In this document: piece by piece, positions 1 through 5,506 of the stretch
Numbering within the stretch: position 1 is the stretch's first letter
How the letters are laid out: the number at the start of each line of letters is the position of its first letter
Virus record (IMG/VR): IMGVR_UViG_2537561977_000030
Coordinates: 1 to 24,811 of that record
Length of the DNA stretch: 24,811 nucleotides
Direction: 5' to 3' (one strand)
From: a virus
Lineage: Duplodnaviria; Heunggongvirae; Uroviricota; Caudoviricetes
Program-made: the position numbers and the translations under genes
The notes under the pieces: model-generated
The model's database searches: none
Seen by the model: the letters and a program-made list of their open reading frames with translations, nothing else
Told to the model about the DNA's origin: nothing

Positions 1-581
1 TTACAACTCAGCTTGAGTTTGAAGTTCCTCTACAGGGTGATAACGATAAATCGTCGATATACCGATATCGTAAATAATTGCCAACTGTTTCCTGCTATAG
101 CCATTTTTGATCAGCCTTGCTATTTGTTCATGTTGCTCTTTTGTCAGTTTCGGACGACGTCCACCAATACGCCCCTGTGCACGTGCTGCTGCCAGTCCGG
201 CCAGTGTACGCTCTACAATTAATTCACGTTCCATTTCGGCTAAAGCCCCCATGACGTGAAAAAGAAACGCCCCATGGGTGTTGATGTGTCAATGCTGTCC
301 GTCAGACTACGGAAATTAACACCTTTTTCCCGCAATTCCTCAATAAGCGTGATCAGGTGTTTCATACTTCTGCCCAGTCTGTCCAGCTTCCAGACAACCA
401 GCGTATCTCCTTCTGATAGCGTTCTGAGCAGTTTTTTCAATCCCGGTCTGGCTGATTTCGTTCCGCTGATTTTATCTTCAAAAATCAGTTCACATCCTGC
501 GCAGTTCAGTGCATTGCGTTGTAAATCCGTGTTCTGGTCATTTGTTGACACACGAATATAGCCAATTTGCATAAAAAACAT
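1..581 (-). pseudogene. Serine DNA invertase (Hin/Gin/Pin/Cin family) split by a 1-nt frameshift
   Basis: ORF 240-581 gives an N-terminal resolvase catalytic domain (IGYIRVSTNDQNTDLQRNAL...VVWKLDRLGRSMKHL...SLTDSIDTSTPMGRFFF). ORF 1-252 in another frame gives the C-terminal part (MGALAEMERELIVERTLAGLAAARAQGRIGGRRPKLT...). Adding one A to the A5 run at 259-263 restores a continuous ...MGRFFFHVMGALAEMERE... reading, as in Gin/Pin. Confidence 0.85.
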
Positions 582-586
582 CCTCT

Positions 587-1663
587 TTGTTTCGTGAAAA
601 ATACATAGTTGGTATAGGTAGGGATAAAGACGAAAACGTTGGTTTACAGGAAACGGTAAACAAGGCTGATAACGCTGTCCAAAAGACAGGCGATACCTTG
701 TCCGGTGGACTTACTTTTGAAAACGACTCAATCCTTGCCTGGATTCGGAATACTGACTGCGCGAAGATTGGATTTAAAAATGATGCCGACAGCGACACTG
801 ATTCATACATGTGGTTTGAAACAGGCGACAACGGCAATGAATATTTCAAATGGAGACACCGCATCATTGGCACCCGGCCTAAAGACCTGATGAATCTTAA
901 ATGGAATGCTTTGTCTGTTCTTGTTGAAGCCCTTTTCAGCAGTGAAGTGAAAATATCGACAGTCAATGCACTGAGGATATTTAATTCATCTTTTGGTGCC
1001 ATTTTTCGTCGTTCTGAAGAATGCCTGCATATCATCCCTACACGAGAGAATGAGGGAGAAAATGGTAATATAGGGCCATTACGCCCCTTTACGCTTAATC
1101 TCAGAACTGGCCGGATAAGCATGGGGCATGGTCTTGATGTTACAGGGGATATATTTGCAAACCGTTTTGCAATTAACAGTAGTACCGGCATGTGGATTCA
1201 TATGCGTGACCAGAATGTTATTTTGGGACGTAATGCGGTATCCACTGATGGTGCTCAGGCTTTGCTCCGTCAGGACCATGCCGACCGCAAATTTATGATT
1301 GGCGGTCTGGGAAATAAGCAATTTGGCATCTACATGATTAATAACTCAAGGACAGCCAATGGCACCGATGGTCAGGCGTACATGGATAATAACGGGAACT
1401 GGCTTTGCGGCTCGCAAGTTATTCCCGGCAACTATGGCAATTTTGATTCCAGATATGTGAAAGATGTTCGACTTGGTTCACAGCAATATTATGGAGTGAA
1501 CAACTGGCAAACATGGAATTTTCAGTGCCCGTCAGGCTATGTACTGACGGGGATTAACGTACAGGATACCGGAAAAAACTCTGCCGATAATATTGCAGGC
1601 GTTCATTACAGGCCAGTGCAAAAGTATATAAATGGCACTTGGTATAATGTGGCGAGTATTTAA
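587..1663 (+). CDS. Alternative tail-fibre C-terminal cassette (S'v-like), silent in this orientation; the exchangeable part is about 640-1663
   Basis: Translation contains [36 protein letters not shown]... and ends [11 protein letters not shown], paralleling the C-terminus of the minus-strand fibre (INGTWYNAGSI). It starts at the crossover site and has no constant N-terminal part of its own. Confidence 0.7.
627..652. other. hix/gix-like 26-bp recombination site A (invertase crossover site)
   Basis: Plus strand AAGACGAAAACG TT GGTTTACAGGAA. Its reverse complement TTCCTGTAAACC AA CGTTTTCGTCTT shares a 14-bp arm plus core with site B at 3702-3727, in inverted orientation. Confidence 0.7.
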
Positions 1664-1664
1664 T

Positions 1665-2192
1665 ATGATGCACTTAAAGAACATAAAAGCAGGTAATGCT
1701 AAAACAGTGGAGCAGTATGAGTTAACAAAGAAGCACGGAGTCATCTGGCTTTACTCTGAGGACGGAAAAAACTGGTATGAGGAAGTGAAGAACTTTCAGC
1801 CAGACACAATAAAGATTGTTTACGATGCAAATAATATTATTGTCGCCATCACCAAAGATGCCTCCACGCTTAACCCTGAAGGTTATAGCGTCGTTGAGGT
1901 TTCTGATATTACAGCTAATCGTCGTGCTGATGATTCCGGTAAGTGGATGTTTAAGGACGGAGCTGTGGTTAAACGGATTTATACGGCTGACGAACAGCAA
2001 CAACAGGCCGAATCACAAAAGGCCGCATTGCTTTCCGAAGCTGAATCAGTCATCCAGCCGCTGGAACGCGCTGTCAGGCTGAATATGGCGACGGACGAGG
2101 AACGCACACGACTGGAAGCATGGGAACGCTACAGTGTTCTGGTCAGCCGTGTGGATACGGCAAAGCCAGAATGGCCACAAAAGCCTGAGTAA
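1665..2192 (+). CDS. Tail-fibre assembly protein, alternative copy (U'-like)
   Basis: The N-terminus [23 protein letters not shown]...[13 protein letters not shown]...NFQPDT parallels the minus-strand U-like protein. ATG lies 2 nt after the S'v stop. Confidence 0.8.
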
Positions 2193-2197
2193 AAATT

Positions 2198-2217
2198 AAG
2201 GCCCGATATCGGGCCTT
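2198..2217. terminator. Bidirectional hairpin between convergent U' and U genes
   Basis: Perfect 20-bp palindrome AAGGCCCGATATCGGGCCTT, flanked by an A-run on one side and a T-rich stretch on the other, at the centre of the invertible segment. Confidence 0.5.
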
Positions 2218-2220
2218 GTT

Positions 2221-2754
2221 TCATTCTGGTTGTTCGGGAAACGTTACTGGCAGGCTGGAGGTGTCTGTGGATTCGACCTTCTGCGCATAGAGCATCCACT
2301 CGGTTAATTTTTGTTTATTCTCGTCGGAAATAATGCCCAGCCGTAGCTGTGAGTCCCACAGCTGGGTTTTATCCCTGACGAGCTGTAGCAGGCTTTGCTT
2401 TTCATTTTCCGCTTGTTGCCTCTGCTCTTCCCCGGTATAAGTTCGCTTTATCACTACGCCATCTTTGAACATCCATTTACCTGAAATATCAGCCCGGCGA
2501 TTTGCTGTAATATCAGGAACCTCAACGACGCTTGCGCCTTCCGGATTAATTGCTGAAACATCCTTTTCAATACAAATAATAACGCCGTTGTGGTCATAGA
2601 CCATTTTCAACGTATCAGGCTGAAAGTTCTTTTGTTCCTCATACCAGTTTTTCCCATCCTCTGTATAAAGCCATTTGATGTTAAATTGCTTTGTTAGCTG
2701 GTATTGCTCTTTTGTTTCAGGATTACCAGCAGAAATGTTTTTTAAGTGCATCAT
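2221..2754 (-). CDS. Tail-fibre assembly protein (Mu U / P2 G-like)
   Basis: 177-aa ORF MMHLKNISAGNPETKEQYQLTKQ...[13 protein letters not shown]...; start is 2 nt after the fibre stop. Confidence 0.85.
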   Translation of the reverse strand: MMHLKNISAGNPETKEQYQLTKQFNIKWLYTEDGKNWYEEQKNFQPDTLKMVYDHNGVIICIEKDVSAINPEGASVVEVPDITANRRADISGKWMFKDGVVIKRTYTGEEQRQQAENEKQSLLQLVRDKTQLWDSQLRLGIISDENKQKLTEWMLYAQKVESTDTSSLPVTFPEQPE

Positions 2755-2756
2755 CG

Positions 2757-4045
2757 TTAAATACTCCCCGCGTTATACCACGTCCCATTAATGCAATACT
2801 GAATTGGCCTTGCCTGTGTTGTATCAATTAATTCATCACGGTTTCCGTTAACTGAACCCGTAACGACATAACCTGACCTGTCAGACCATCCGGGACCATT
2901 CCATGTCTGAACAGATGACAGACCGCCCAGGCGAATACCTGTAATAAACCTTGAGTTACATTCTGCCTGCGTGTATGCACCAACATCTCCCGCTGATGGC
3001 TTACGTGTTGTGGTGTAGAATTCTGACCAGTCAGCCTCAAATCCATAACCATCACGCGCTGAACGATAAAAAATACCGCCGTTCTTATAATTCACACGGA
3101 ACTGTACGGCAGGGCAACTCCCCGTATTCATATTGAAGTGGAGTATTAATGCTGTTGCGCCTTTGATATCTGCATCATAAACACCGCTATTCCAGTTCCA
3201 GCCAACAGCTTTATCATTTGCAACCCTGCTTCCTGTTTGCCCTAAAGCAAATGCAGGCTGCTGGTTTTTCGTGTTGTAGTCTCGTCGCCAGCCAGGAGCG
3301 TAAGCATCACCATGATTAATATAGGTGAATTGAGCGTTAGTGATTCCGCCGCCGCTGGACGTGCCCGGCGTGGTAACGCGTATGGTCATTGCGCCACGAG
3401 TGCCAGTAACTTCCACAACAGCACCTGCAAGACAAATATTTCCGCAACCTGTATCTGTAATGACCTTATTATTTGCATAAGCCCATGAGCCTTTGCACAT
3501 CCAGTAAGGATGGTTAAATGCCCCCTGACTCTCCAGCCACGAAATAAATTGCGCAGTTGTCCAGACCTGACTATCGCCACCAATATCCACCCATGCGCTA
3601 TATGCGCGACAGGCACCAATATTTTTGGTGAAGGTATCTTTTCCTGGAATATCTGCGCCGTTCTGGTTTTTCTGTAATGCGCCAGAAGCCTGATTTATCG
3701 CTTCCTGTAAACCAAGGTTTTTGACAAACAGCGCAGGATCAGGAATATCTGCGCCGTTCTGGTCTTTAGCCAGCTTTTCCGCCAGCTTGTTCAGTACCGT
3801 AGTCGCAAAGTTTGGATCATTACCGAGAGCGTCAGCCAGCTCTTTAAGCGTATCCAGTGTCTCAGGGGCGCTGCCTGCAAGTGCCGCAAGTGCTTTGGCC
3901 ACAAACTCCGTTGTCGCCAGCTTTTTGCTGTTATCGCCATTTGCAGGTGTAGGTGCTGTTGGTGTGCCGGTGAATGCCGGACTGGCTTTCTGTGCGTACC
4001 GGGTATGCGGGTCTGCTGCCGCGATGTGTTTCGCAAGGTCAGCCC
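2757..4045 (-). pseudogene. Tail-fibre gene, C-terminal portion (constant part to 3716, variable Sv part 3715-2757), severed from its start by the IS
   Basis: Translation has tail-fibre hallmarks (GADLAKHIAAADPHTRYAQKASPAFTGTPTAPTPANGDNSKKLATTEFV...NLGLQE...INGTWYNAGSI). The ORF in the track (2757-4169) takes its first 41 codons from inside the IS. Confidence 0.8.
3702..3727. other. hix/gix-like 26-bp recombination site B inside the tail-fibre ORF
   Basis: TTCCTGTAAACC AA GGTTTTTGACAA closely resembles hixL (TTCTTGAAAACCAAGGTTTTTGATAA) and encodes N-L-G-L-Q-E on the minus strand. Confidence 0.75.
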
Positions 4046-5339
4046 CTGAGGAATCCCCAGAAAACAAGACAGGCATAGTGAGATGTGATCTAATTGATTG
4101 TGCTAACAATTTCAAGGAGATCACCACTATGCCTGCACGTTCATTATGCCAAAATTTCCTTAACAACATACTGGCCCCTTTGCATCTTTACCGTCAAAAA
4201 TCACTGATTGACGCAACTAATGCTGTAATAAATGGCGCTTCCCTCACACTTACCAGTATCGGGCGTCATTTAACCGGTACGGCATCAGTTAAAAACAAAA
4301 TAAAGCGGGTGGATCGACTGTTGGGGAATCGACATTTGCAAAATGAGGTTTCCACCATTTTTCAGCGAATTACCCAAAAGATTACGCGGGGAATGTCTCG
4401 TGTTGTGATACTCATTGACTGGAGTGCTTATCATGCCTCTCGTTTTCAGCTTTTGCGGGCAAGCCTGGCATGTGACGGGCGTTCTTTACCGTTGATGAGT
4501 TGTGTCGTTCCATCATCACAGACAGCGAATGCAGATGTACATGAGCGTTTTCTGGAATCGCTTGCTGAGTGCTTTTCCCCCGGGACTGATGTCATTGTTA
4601 TTACAGATGCCGGTTTTCAGGGGCGATGGTTCCAACAGCTCCGCTCCCGTGGCTGGACCTATATTTGCCGGGTACTGGGCAATCATTATTACAATGTTGG
4701 TAATGGCTGGGAAAAGGTGTCGGACTCAGGCACAAAAGCATCAACGACAGCAATTTATTTAGGTGAAGGCCTGCTGGGTCGAGATAAAAATGCACAACAT
4801 GAAGGGCATTTTTATCTTTATAAAAGTAAGCCTAAAGGTCGTAGATTTAAACGCTCGAAGGAAAGAGCAACCAGACCATCGGTGACGGCTAAAGCTCGTA
4901 CTGCCGGGAAATCACCATGGTTTATTTTCACAAACAGTACTGAGTTCTCGCCAAAACAGGTAATGAAATTATACAGCCGTAGAATGCAAATTGAGCAAAA
5001 TTTCAGGGATGAAAAAAATCCTCGCTGGGGATTTGGACTACGGTTTGGTGCCAGTCATTCATCCGGGCGGGTCACGGTATTGAGTCTGATCGCAACATTA
5101 GCCAGTATCATTATGTGGTTAAGCGGTTTCAGCCTGGAAAACAAAGGGATACATCATAAATATCAGGCAAATACAGTGAAGCACAGGCGAGTCATCTCGT
5201 TATTAAAACTGGCGGAGAATGTGATTCGACATTCTCCACTCATACTAAACACACTGTCACTTGACGCAGGGCTGAAAGTTCTACAGCAACGGTATACCAA
5301 TATGATAATGGTTTACTAAATTTTCTGGGGATCCCTCAG
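4046..5339 (+). mobile_element. IS4-family (IS10-group) insertion sequence, about 1.29 kb
   Basis: 19-bp terminal inverted repeats CTGAGGAATCCCCAGAAAA (4046-4064) and, reverse-complemented, CTGAGGGATCCCCAGAAAA (5321-5339). Flanked by direct repeat AGGTCAGCCC (4036-4045 and 5340-5349). One transposase ORF. Confidence 0.85.
4129..5319 (+). CDS. IS10-like DDE transposase (396 aa)
   Basis: ATG at 4129 preceded by AAGGAGA. Translation aligns with remembered IS10 transposase blocks (KRVDRLLGNRHL..., IVITDAGF..., YSRRMQIEQNFRDEK...). The upstream part of track ORF 3721-5319 is a read-in artefact. Confidence 0.85.
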   Translation: MPARSLCQNFLNNILAPLHLYRQKSLIDATNAVINGASLTLTSIGRHLTGTASVKNKIKRVDRLLGNRHLQNEVSTIFQRITQKITRGMSRVVILIDWSAYHASRFQLLRASLACDGRSLPLMSCVVPSSQTANADVHERFLESLAECFSPGTDVIVITDAGFQGRWFQQLRSRGWTYICRVLGNHYYNVGNGWEKVSDSGTKASTTAIYLGEGLLGRDKNAQHEGHFYLYKSKPKGRRFKRSKERATRPSVTAKARTAGKSPWFIFTNSTEFSPKQVMKLYSRRMQIEQNFRDEKNPRWGFGLRFGASHSSGRVTVLSLIATLASIIMWLSGFSLENKGIHHKYQANTVKHRRVISLLKLAENVIRHSPLILNTLSLDAGLKVLQQRYTNMIMVY

Positions 5340-5506
5340 AGGTCAGCCCCGCCTTTTTCAACCTGTTGCTTCAGGTACAGCGTGCGGCTGGCCAGTTGTT
5401 TACCCTGACGGTTAGAAATTCCGTCAGGTCCGCCCAGAACGGGGTCAGAGACCTCAATCTGGTAGATGCCGTTTTCCCACTGCGGGGTTTCGGGTAGATT
5501 TGCCAT
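5340..5506 (-). pseudogene. Tail-fibre gene, N-terminal fragment (about 55 codons) separated by the IS
   Basis: ATG at 5506 follows the gpI-like stop by 2 nt and reads MANLPETPQWENGIYQIEVSDPVLGGPDGISNRQGKQLASRTLYLKQQVEKGGAD. Removing 4046-5349 rejoins it in frame with 2757-4045. Confidence 0.75.

Follow-up and report, generated by a model that had tools for sequence, protein, structure and literature searches.

ISEc60 in a tail-fibre gene of an Escherichia coli prophage: a very probable IS10-like antisense module at the left end and a long reading frame that is most likely untranslated

In IS10, RNA-OUT is 69 nt long and ends at nt 47, which places its start at nt 115, 7 nt inside the transposase ORF (ATG at nt 108), and a Dam site (GATC) covers the -10 of the inward promoter (PMC5006887). 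Despite the defined 3' end of RNA-OUT, transcripts from pOUT of IS10 read into neighbouring genes (PMC2744996, PMC9330008). Insertions of IS10 upstream of otsBA, for instance, were recovered by evolving cells experimentally under stress and by screening for up-regulation of otsB (PMC2744996). Production of a truncated or hybrid protein from an IS outward promoter is reported for AdeS truncated by ISAba1 (PMC3498117).

The window studied here, 24,811 nt of IMG/VR record IMGVR_UViG_2537561977_000030, was 100% identical to GCA_000188815.2 across the 11.5 kb compared. The insertion lies in an E. coli prophage with a contractile tail of the P2/Mu type. Its late tail operon, V-W-J-I-fibre, is co-oriented and lies directly upstream of the insertion. 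The features of the interrupted region are as follows.

4046..5339, (+) strand: ISEc60, IS4 family, with IS10-like ends CTGAGGAATCCCCAG / CTGAGGGATCCCCAG; identified by 100% identical annotated copies
4129..5319, (+) strand: ISEc60 transposase gene, 396 aa, intact, with SD AAGGAG at 4114-4119; identified by Pfam, NCBIfam and comparison with IS10
4036..4045, no strand: left copy of the target-site direct repeat AGGTCAGCC(C), read from the sequence
5340..5349, no strand: right copy of the same repeat, read from the sequence; the join lacking the IS is contiguous elsewhere
5336..5506, (-) strand: severed 5' part of the fibre gene, 56 aa (residues 1-56), with a TGA stop in the right end of the IS; from ORF and translation
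2757..4045, (-) strand: 3' remnant of the fibre gene, residues 53-481, of which the C-terminal 345 aa are Mu S/S'-like; PDB 8ju3 and PHROG tail-fibre families
2221..2754, (-) strand: tail-fibre assembly chaperone, 177 aa, with its own SD (GGGGAG); Pfam Caudo_TAP 7e-37, phrog_136 1e-74
5212..5239, (-) strand: terminator-like hairpin and T-run inside the IS, which would hinder late-operon transcripts of the phage from crossing it; consensus scan

The element was 1294 bp long and agreed at 1294 of 1294 nt with annotated ISEc60 copies from Shigella and from chromosomes and plasmids of E. coli. The annotation on these identical copies is 'IS4-like element ISEc60 family transposase'. The transposase matched Pfam DDE_Tnp_1 (1.8e-20) and NCBIfam transpos_IS4_2 (360.5 bits; cut-off 152), and aligned with its homologue in IS10 at 36% identity over 375 aa (E 1e-74). 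Terminal inverted repeats of the IS10 type were present, with CTGA.GAATCCCC common to both elements, and the left end, together with the region around the transposase ATG, aligned to the outside end of IS10. As judged from these comparisons, ISEc60 is a genuine relative of IS10, in the IS4 family with a DDE transposase. Genomes of Shigella and enteroinvasive-type E. coli carried the element in large numbers, at up to 39 places in one genome; a literature search returned two incidental mentions only.

The direct repeat was 10 nt as read (AGGTCAGCCC), that is, 9 bp plus one ambiguous base; the exact end of the IS is ambiguous by 1 nt because of this flanking repeat. Read as AGGTCAGCC, its core fits GCTNAGC at six of seven positions; GCTNAGC is the core of the IS10 target consensus, a 9-bp duplication resembling NGCTNAGCN (PMC2744996). 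The transposition of ISEc60 apparently hit a Mu-S-like tail-fibre gene within its codons 53-56 and duplicated AGGTCAGCC(C).

When the sequence ending at 4045 was joined to that beginning at 5350, a contiguous, uninterrupted fibre gene of 481 aa was restored. The corresponding 601-nt junction without the IS was found contiguous and free of indels in 52 E. coli genomes (best match 99.2%), and none of the complete RefSeq E. coli genomes carried the fibre-gene insertion. The exact 56-aa N-terminal product was present in 11 contigs of the gene index, three NCBI assemblies among them. The fibre gene is now a two-piece pseudogene, an ordinary IS-inactivated prophage gene. Residues 1-51/52, on the severed part, matched the N-termini of several PHROG tail-fibre families, and this module is presumably the end that attaches to the baseplate. 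Lesions in the invertase, gpD and gpU were considered as support for prophage decay and set aside: the three indels, scored against CP065611.1, all fall in homopolymer runs of 5 nt, where sequencing error is a possible cause. At 294 aa, gpU is intact.

The fibre gene belongs to a Mu-type invertible tail-fibre (G-segment) module, all the tested features of which were found. Two fibre-tip and chaperone pairs oppose each other, with Caudo_TAP chaperones in both orientations. Gix-like inverted repeats of 35 bp lie at 633-667 and 3687-3721 (30 of 35 positions match), a resolvase-type (serine) invertase (Resolvase+HTH_7) adjoins the module, and the G segment was inverted in another strain (L004). 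The arrangement resembles that of phage Mu, with its fibres S/S', chaperones U/U' and Gin-invertible G segment, and fibre residues 137-481, the C-terminal 345, matched 'Tail fiber protein S, S'' of PDB 8ju3 (E 2.3e-222). It differs from Mu in the constant N-terminal part of the fibre, which was not Mu-like in the PDB comparison, in the location of the fibre gene within a baseplate module of the P2 type (gpV-W-J-I), and in the interruption of this gene by ISEc60.

The first-pass annotation had described a reading frame that leaves the IS outward and fuses 41 IS codons to the fibre from about residue 54. The frame and its starts are listed here.

2757..4169, (-) strand: mechanical ORF of 470 codons, 41 from the IS followed by fibre residues 53/54-481; ORF list and translation
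4167..4169, (-) strand: ATG of this ORF, at -33..-31 of the predicted outward start, with SD-like AAGGGG at 4180-4175
4065..4076, (-) strand: in-frame starts nearest the IS end, ATG 4076-4074 (3' arm of the hairpin described below) and TTG 4067-4065 (U-tract); anti-SD duplex and folding

The mechanical ORF list and the translation bore this description out. The ORF begins with ATG, stops at 2757 and encodes 470 aa in the fibre frame. Positions 4169..4047 supply 41 whole codons within the IS, and codon 42 (GGG), which spans the junction, is fibre Gly53. The product reads MLLRKFWHNERAGIVVISLKLLAQSIRSHLTMPVLFSGDSS, continues as GADLAKHIAAADPH... and ends at the fibre C-terminus, with MLLRKFWHNERAGIVVISLK... 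as the fusion segment. As had also been stated, the ATG lies inside the IS and antisense to the 5' end of the transposase gene, opposite codons 13-14.

The ORF would owe its existence solely to a coincidence: at the left end of the IS an antisense frame stays open over 47 codons, includes an ATG and matches the phase of the fibre. The other two frames were open for 19 and 14 codons. By our estimate, about 14% of random 41-codon stretches lack a stop ((61/64)^41), and the open frame is, on this reckoning, no more than expected by chance. The three relatives nearest to the IS (L009, L010 and L086) lacked ATG 4169, and in L011-type relatives the frame was closed by TGA TGA. The exact 470-aa product had no record in an index of 153 billion genes. 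Gene callers began the fibre remnant at TTG 4067, which gives 436 aa.

ATG 4169 is preceded by its SD-like sequence at a spacing of 5 (anti-SD duplex -7.0 kcal/mol). It was the sole start with an SD-like sequence in comparison with ATG 4076 and TTG 4067, for which no SD was found (+0.4 and +2.2 kcal/mol, respectively). GTG 3902, inside the fibre remnant, had a GGAG-type SD (-5.4 kcal/mol).

The left end of ISEc60 was compared with the control region of IS10. Four elements were recognized.

4069..4136, (-) strand: RNA-OUT-like hairpin, 68 nt, antisense to the transposase SD and start codon; predicted body of a small RNA, also a fold-back on the (+) strand; folding and covariation
4061..4067, (-) strand: U-tract UUGUUUU immediately after the hairpin, a probable intrinsic terminator of the outward transcript; from the sequence, with function predicted
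4143..4151, (-) strand: candidate pOUT with extended -10 TGgCATAAT (TGGCATAAT) and predicted +1 at about G4136; conservation and position in IS10
4066..4094, (+) strand: candidate pIN, AAGACA-17-TCTAAT, with GATC 4087-4090 over the -10; assigned by alignment with IS10 pIN

The hairpin (4136-4069) had a minimum free energy of -38 kcal/mol (z -5.9). RNAalifold on 53 distinct relatives detected compensatory changes in 9 of 11 pairs. In a 19-pair structure 87% of the cells were paired, with double changes in 12 of the 19 pairs; none of 500 shuffles reached this level of pairing, and slid controls gave 25-48%. In ISEc60, as in IS10, a conserved hairpin some 70 nt long lies antisense to the ribosome-binding site and start codon of the transposase gene.

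The Rfam model of RNA-OUT (RF00240) aligned over its full length with 4066-4136 on the (-) strand at 16.8 bits, below the gathering score of 41, compared with 98.8 bits for the IS10 control. None of 19 relatives scored with this model within E<=10. The sub-threshold match was not taken as evidence by itself, since equally weak chance matches to miRNAs and snoRNAs appeared at permissive thresholds. A covariance model built without IS10 (R1) gave the RNA-OUT locus of IS10 as its only significant match in L008 (20.3 bits, E ~0.003).

The asymmetry between G-U and A-C was used as a test of strand. The (-) strand gave 87.2% of cells paired versus 84.8% for the (+) strand, a difference too weak to decide. 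With pairing nearly equal, covariation alone cannot separate an antisense RNA from a fold-back of read-in mRNA.

At least five T in the 8 nt past the stem were found in 37 of the 53 relatives; IS10 has two. Because the U-tract follows the hairpin, termination inside the IS is expected for most outward transcripts. The RNA-OUT-like antisense RNA (hairpin 4136-4069 plus U-tract) would be about 75-80 nt long and would pair with the translation-initiation region of the transposase.

A TGnCAWAMT-type motif was present in all 49 relatives that have the Cys-Gln/His motif. Parts of it (TG and CA) are fixed by the conserved Cys and Gln/His codons. The T at -7 of the candidate sigma-70 promoter pairs with the third base of codon 5, which was A in 45 of 49 relatives across 10 different amino acids; the -10 is conserved even at synonymous sites. 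It occupies the same position relative to the ATG as the IS10 -10 (TAAAAT), which predicts a +1 at ATG+7. Anchored on IS10 and on the extended -10, the outward start of ISEc60 would be at about G4136. The candidate went unreported in the consensus promoter scan, which requires a -35 match; being of the extended -10 type, the candidate has no recognizable -35. Nor did the scan find a promoter-like site on the (-) strand between 4170 and 4684.

On the inward side, GATC 4087-4090 overlaps TCTAAT 4089-4094 and aligns with the GATC of IS10. It was kept in 50 of the 53 relatives, and both elements have a further GATC in the other terminal repeat. The predicted start of RNA-IN, at about 4101-4102, falls in the hairpin loop, which would give an overlap of about 35 nt, as in IS10. 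The control module of the left end would comprise a weak inward promoter under the Dam site, an outward extended -10 and the antisense RNA.

The left end of ISEc60 also differed from the outside end of IS10. It is 25 nt shorter (a 25-nt gap in the alignment), so that the transposase ATG is at IS nt 84 instead of 108. Its hairpin folds far more stably (-38 versus -24 kcal/mol) and is followed by the U-tract, which IS10 lacks, the candidate outward promoter is of the extended -10 type, and the Rfam gathering score was not reached. Relatives of ISEc60 were found in Enterobacterales, Oceanimonas, Pseudoalteromonas, Legionella and other genera.

Given the covariation of the hairpin, the conservation of the -10 at synonymous sites and the Dam site over the putative pIN -10, the left end of ISEc60 very probably carries a pOUT/RNA-OUT equivalent antisense to the 5' end of the transposase gene. 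The proposal of an IS10-like outward promoter was therefore sustained as to its probable presence; it failed as to what the promoter could express. With the predicted start at about 4136, 33 nt downstream of ATG 4169, this ATG falls in the -35 region and off the transcript. The fibre altered by 41 N-terminal codons is, on this analysis, not a product of the pOUT equivalent.

We consider it likely that ISEc60 split the fibre gene and created a chance ORF, that the IS10-like module in its left end starts transcription at about 4136, and that the fusion is not expressed. As it stands, the 470-codon ORF most likely does not represent a gene and is most likely an untranslated by-product of the insertion, because its ATG is upstream of the start of the probable outward promoter. 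Transcription at a low level may extend over the remnant and the chaperone gene, the latter equipped with an SD of its own. ATG 4169 could be translated if a (-) transcript from deeper in the IS, or from across it, arrives, and any such product would lack the conserved N-terminal fibre module.

The alternative put forward in the first-pass annotation was that an IS10-like outward promoter transcribes ATG 4169 and the remnant, yielding a 470-aa altered fibre together with the chaperone. The real, in-frame ORF, the SD-like AAGGGG 5 nt before its ATG, the relationship of ISEc60 to IS10 with a likely pOUT, and the activation of adjacent genes by IS10 pOUT (PMC2744996, PMC9330008) agree with it. 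The conserved -10 at 4151-4143 and the homology-anchored +1, on the other hand, put the ATG at -33, and no other promoter-like site was seen in 4170-4684. The ATG was not kept in close relatives, and the 470-aa product was absent from gene calls. The precedents (ISAba1-AdeS and IS10-otsBA) share with this locus an IS end whose outward promoter faces the 3' part of a gene that is interrupted or lies downstream. They differ in where the start codon lies: at otsBA the one used is downstream of the outward transcription start (PMC2744996), whereas ATG 4169 is upstream of the predicted one. The otsBA case was also recovered under selection and a screen, whereas there is no evidence of selection at the ISEc60-fibre site. 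In ISAba1-AdeS, too, the start codon used reportedly lies downstream of the outward transcription start. We consider this alternative very improbable. Leaky read-through from pOUT past the hairpin and the U-tract, with translation from ATG 4076, TTG 4067 or GTG 3902 and from the ribosome-binding site of the chaperone, would instead produce an N-terminally truncated fibre and the chaperone. Read-out from IS10 pOUT was about 10% of PlacUV (PMC9330008), the chaperone gene and GTG 3902 have SD sequences, and TTG 4067 is accepted by gene callers. Set against this are the terminator-like combination of the -38 kcal/mol hairpin and UUGUUUU, which IS10 lacks, the lack of an SD at ATG 4076 and TTG 4067, and the location of ATG 4076 in the stem. 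A fibre without residues 1-52 would also miss the N-terminal module common to many fibre families, and we regard this course as unlikely.

Translation of the 470-aa ORF from induced late-operon transcripts, which would cross the whole IS from its right end and re-initiate at the SD and ATG 4169, appears quite improbable. The tail operon is suitably placed directly upstream in the same orientation, and no in-frame start ahead of ATG 4169 has an SD-like sequence. In such transcripts the antisense IS RNA between the stop at 5336 and ATG 4169, about 1170 nt, would go untranslated, which would favour Rho-dependent polarity, an established behaviour of IS insertions. They would also meet the terminator-like hairpin and T-run at 5239-5212 on the same strand; the terminator consensus scan gave 4 sites versus 1.8 expected, which makes it weak evidence for this one. 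The product would still be without the N-terminal module. A further reading would give ISEc60 and its relatives a common homologue of IS10 RNA-OUT that is distinct and carries a terminator; in this prophage, leaky output from its promoter might keep the chaperone and a truncated fibre tip expressed, the remnant having been co-opted. It might then be a free receptor-binding protein rather than dead. The G segment was still inverted after the arrival of the IS, so expression or co-option of a truncated fibre is conceivable; as a whole we hold this reading to be very improbable.

The preferred reading, of a split gene with a chance ORF, implies that the long ORF is not to be annotated as a fusion protein. 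The finding on the fibre matters little by itself, being a routine case of an IS-inactivated prophage gene. For IS10-type elements it brings a caution: the outward start lies close to the transposase ATG, about 7 nt into the ORF, so that antisense start codons deeper in the IS are not expressible from it. An IS10-like antisense module, supported by covariation and missed by the Rfam RNA-OUT model, appears to be common to ISEc60 and some 50 relatives. This module, so far uncurated, is a candidate for RNA family curation, and it bears on the prediction of polar versus activating effects of ISEc60 insertions.

ISEc60, as the insertion sequence (IS) in the tail-fibre gene is identified by its sequence, was 1294 nt long and 100% identical to copies annotated "IS4-like element ISEc60 family transposase". 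Its transposase matched Pfam DDE_Tnp_1 and NCBIfam transpos_IS4_2. Identical copies occurred on E. coli chromosomes and plasmids and in Shigella dysenteriae, in up to 39 places per genome.

Features at the insertion
4046..5339, ISEc60, with inverted ends CTGAGGAATCCCCAG and CTGAGGGATCCCCAG, read from the sequence
4036-4045 and 5340-5349, direct repeat AGGTCAGCC(C) flanking ISEc60, read from the sequence
4129..5319, plus strand, ISEc60 transposase gene (tnp), 396 aa, AAGGAG ahead of the start
5336..5506, minus strand, severed 5' part of the fibre gene, 56 aa, TGA stop within the IS end
2757..4169, minus strand, mechanical ORF of 470 aa with ATG start, from ORF listing and translation
5212-5239, minus strand, terminator-like hairpin in the 3' end of tnp, 11-bp stem and T-run

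Removal of the IS in silico, joining ..4045 to 5350.., restored an intact 481-aa fibre frame, and 52 complete E. coli genomes had the IS-less junction (601 nt) without a break (top match 99.2%). The insertion and its borders were thus confirmed, as was the frame relation. The first-pass annotation had described a minus-strand ORF from ATG 4169 in frame with the fibre, and ORF listing and translation showed this to be exact. Codons 1-41 are IS sequence (4169..4047), codon 42 (GGG) bridges the end of the IS and is the counterpart of fibre Gly53, and the remainder is fibre to the stop. Inside the IS, the fusion frame is open for 47 codons and the other two for 19 and 14; the extension is statistically unremarkable. 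The transposase frame is likewise open leftward past the IS end into fibre antisense (3721-5319, plus strand; mechanically 532 aa from TTG), a mirror of the 470-aa ORF that is equally likely to have arisen by chance.

GCA_000188815.2 (ADUP01000053.1) was 100% identical to the window across 11.5 kb. The same insertion was found in GCA_016026215.1, GCA_900448215.1 and several sequencing-run assemblies, and was absent from the RefSeq complete E. coli set. At this locus, compared with loci L002 and L004 (GCA_900448215.1), tnp is intact in the window and apparently frameshifted in CP065611.1 (extra C; window 4582, a C5 run of ISEc60). In L004 tnp is broken into ORFs of 263 and 153 aa. A 1-nt difference was also seen at the end of gpD (window 8160, T5 run). 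All tnp and gpD indels among the compared loci lay within homopolymers. A Dam site is present in the right terminal repeat, which reads GGGATCCC (5330-5333), as against GGAATCCC in the left one (4052-4056); in some relatives the left repeat has a GATC too. This asymmetry, which we take to mirror the inside and outside ends of IS10, hints by analogy at Dam-regulated end usage.

The left end was compared with an actual IS10 copy from plasmid R100. The transposases share 36% identity over 375 aa (E 1e-74), and an alignment of the left ends, in which ISEc60 has a gap of 25 nt, brings the terminal repeat, GATC and ATG region together. The antisense RNA from the IS10 outward promoter pOUT, RNA-OUT, is 69 nt long, with its 3' end at IS10 nt 47; complementarity to the transposase mRNA, RNA-IN, extends over the first 35 nt of RNA-OUT, and the -10 of the inward promoter pIN is overlapped by a Dam site (PMC5006887). 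Since the IS10 ATG is nt 108, RNA-OUT starts at nt 115, or ATG+7. The Rfam RNA-OUT match in IS10 covered nt 46-115 (98.8 bits).

A minus-strand hairpin from G4136 to U4069 (-38 kcal/mol, z = -5.9) covers the tnp SD and ATG, and is followed 3' by C-UUGUUUU-C and then the terminal repeat. From 80 transposase relatives (one-genome-per-species contigs, 34-86% amino-acid identity), 53 distinct left ends were aligned. RNAalifold recovered the basal stem, where 9 of 11 pairs showed compensatory changes. In a 19-pair structure 87% of cells were paired, with double changes at 12 pairs; none of 500 shuffles equalled the observed pairing or covariation, and slid controls gave 25-48%. For example, a change of the start codon from ATG to GTG was matched by CAC for CAT in the facing arm, and CATAG/CTATG became CATGG/CCATG. 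Pairing was nearly equal on both strands (87.2% of cells on the minus strand, 84.8% on the plus strand).

Within the IS10 locus, a covariance model built from the relatives, IS10 left out, had a single significant match, RNA-OUT (20.3 bits; E about 0.003, by rough calibration). ISEc60 itself scored 16.8 bits with Rfam RNA-OUT, below the gathering score of 41 for formal membership. At least five T within 8 nt past the stem were present in 37 of 53 relatives (two T in IS10), so the antisense RNA of the ISEc60 lineage looks as if it ends at a proper intrinsic terminator. One relative, in Buttiauxella, has a sok antitoxin RNA of the hok/sok type (105 bits) as a neighbour (locus L009, 169-339), and another, in Photorhabdus, lies beside a group II intron domain scoring 46 bits (locus L029, 1843-1919); both are probably mere mobile-element neighbourhoods.

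Candidate promoters
4151-4143, minus strand, extended -10 TGGCATAAT, candidate pOUT, directly upstream of the hairpin
4066-4094, plus strand, candidate pIN AAGACA-17-TCTAAT, with GATC at 4087-4090, aligning with IS10 pIN

A TGnCA(T/A)A(A/C)T-type motif occupied the -10 site in 49/49 relatives with Cys-Gln/His codons, which set part of it. The -7 T complements the third base of codon 5, which is A in 45/49 with ten amino acids encoded, and in 22/22 four-fold-degenerate cases. This bias is a nucleotide-level constraint, as a promoter would show. The IS10 TAAAAT is one nucleotide off the ISEc60 -10 register. G4136, the first hairpin base, is 7 nt downstream of the ISEc60 hexamer, at ATG+7 as in IS10. 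The predicted RNA-IN start, about 4101-4102, falls within the hairpin loop, which would give an overlap of about 35 nt; GATC was kept in 50/53 relatives. The module is homologous to IS10 pIN/pOUT and RNA-IN/RNA-OUT and would work in the same way; the ISEc60 version has a shorter end and a more stable hairpin, adds a U-tract, and carries an extended -10.

Hairpin covariation and the conserved -10 suggested that ISEc60 probably has a pOUT equivalent, which the first-pass annotation had raised as a possibility, but one that cannot express the 41-codon fusion. ATG 4169-4167 precedes the predicted outward start by 33-31 nt, in the -35 region of the predicted pOUT and outside its transcript, so the N-terminally altered 470-aa fibre envisaged from this promoter is not supported. 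Among the in-frame starts only ATG 4169 has an SD-like motif (AAGGGG at a spacing of 5, -7.0 kcal/mol), and it would therefore be usable only by transcripts from deeper in or across the IS. A consensus scan of minus-strand 4170-4684 gave no other promoter-like site. To reach ATG 4169, transcripts from deeper in or across the IS would need to persist through about 1170 nt of untranslated RNA and pass the hairpin at 5239-5212, which would stop transcription entering via the right end.

The in-frame starts that a pOUT-type transcript would contain are GTG 4127 and 4124, TTG 4115 and 4109, ATG 4076 and TTG 4067, with anti-SD duplex energies of -2.8 to +2.2 kcal/mol. All except TTG 4067 lie in the hairpin, ATG 4076 in its 3' arm; TTG 4067, within the U-tract, is the start picked by gene callers (436 aa). 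The 470-aa product was absent from the gene index searched (153 billion genes). The three closest relatives have ATA or ACA in place of ATG 4169, and more distant ones have TGA TGA in the fusion frame, so no antisense gene is conserved here.

The fibre gene lies at the end of a P2-type tail/baseplate module (tape measure, gpU, X, D, V, W, J, I). Fibre residues 1-51/52 find matches at the very N-terminus of several PHROG tail-fibre families that otherwise differ, and the IS therefore severed a conserved N-terminal module, presumably, from general knowledge of P2/Mu-type fibres, the baseplate-attachment end. The C-terminal 345 residues are near-identical to phage Mu S/S' (PDB 8ju3, E 2e-222). 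A Caudo_TAP chaperone gene with its own SD, GGGGAG, follows directly. The fibre and chaperone module is of the invertible Mu G-segment type, with imperfect, gix-like 35-bp inverted repeats at 633-667 and 3687-3721 (30/35 matching).

Features in and next to the invertible segment
587..1663, plus strand, alternative fibre tip, opposed to the expressed pair
1632..2192, plus strand, alternative chaperone, opposed to the expressed pair
240..581 and 1..252, minus strand, Gin/Cin-type invertase in two ORFs (Resolvase and HTH_7 in relatives)

The 633-3721 segment is flipped in L004 with the same ISEc60 insertion, and inversion therefore postdates the fibre disruption. The invertase is split by a 1-nt difference from CP065611.1 in an A5 run at position 264; a sequencing error in the homopolymer could explain it, as could a genuine frameshift.

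IS10 pOUT reads into and activates adjacent genes (PMC2744996; PMC9330008), at about 10% of PlacUV strength (review PMC9330008). By analogy, some transcription of the fibre remnant and chaperone gene is possible; with a stronger hairpin followed by a U-tract, read-out would be expected to be weaker than that of IS10. Residues 1-52 would be missing from any fibre product. An ORF running from an IS into a disrupted gene is an ordinary finding; the only new element would be an uncurated antisense module of IS10 type, shared by ISEc60 and its relatives and supported by covariation.
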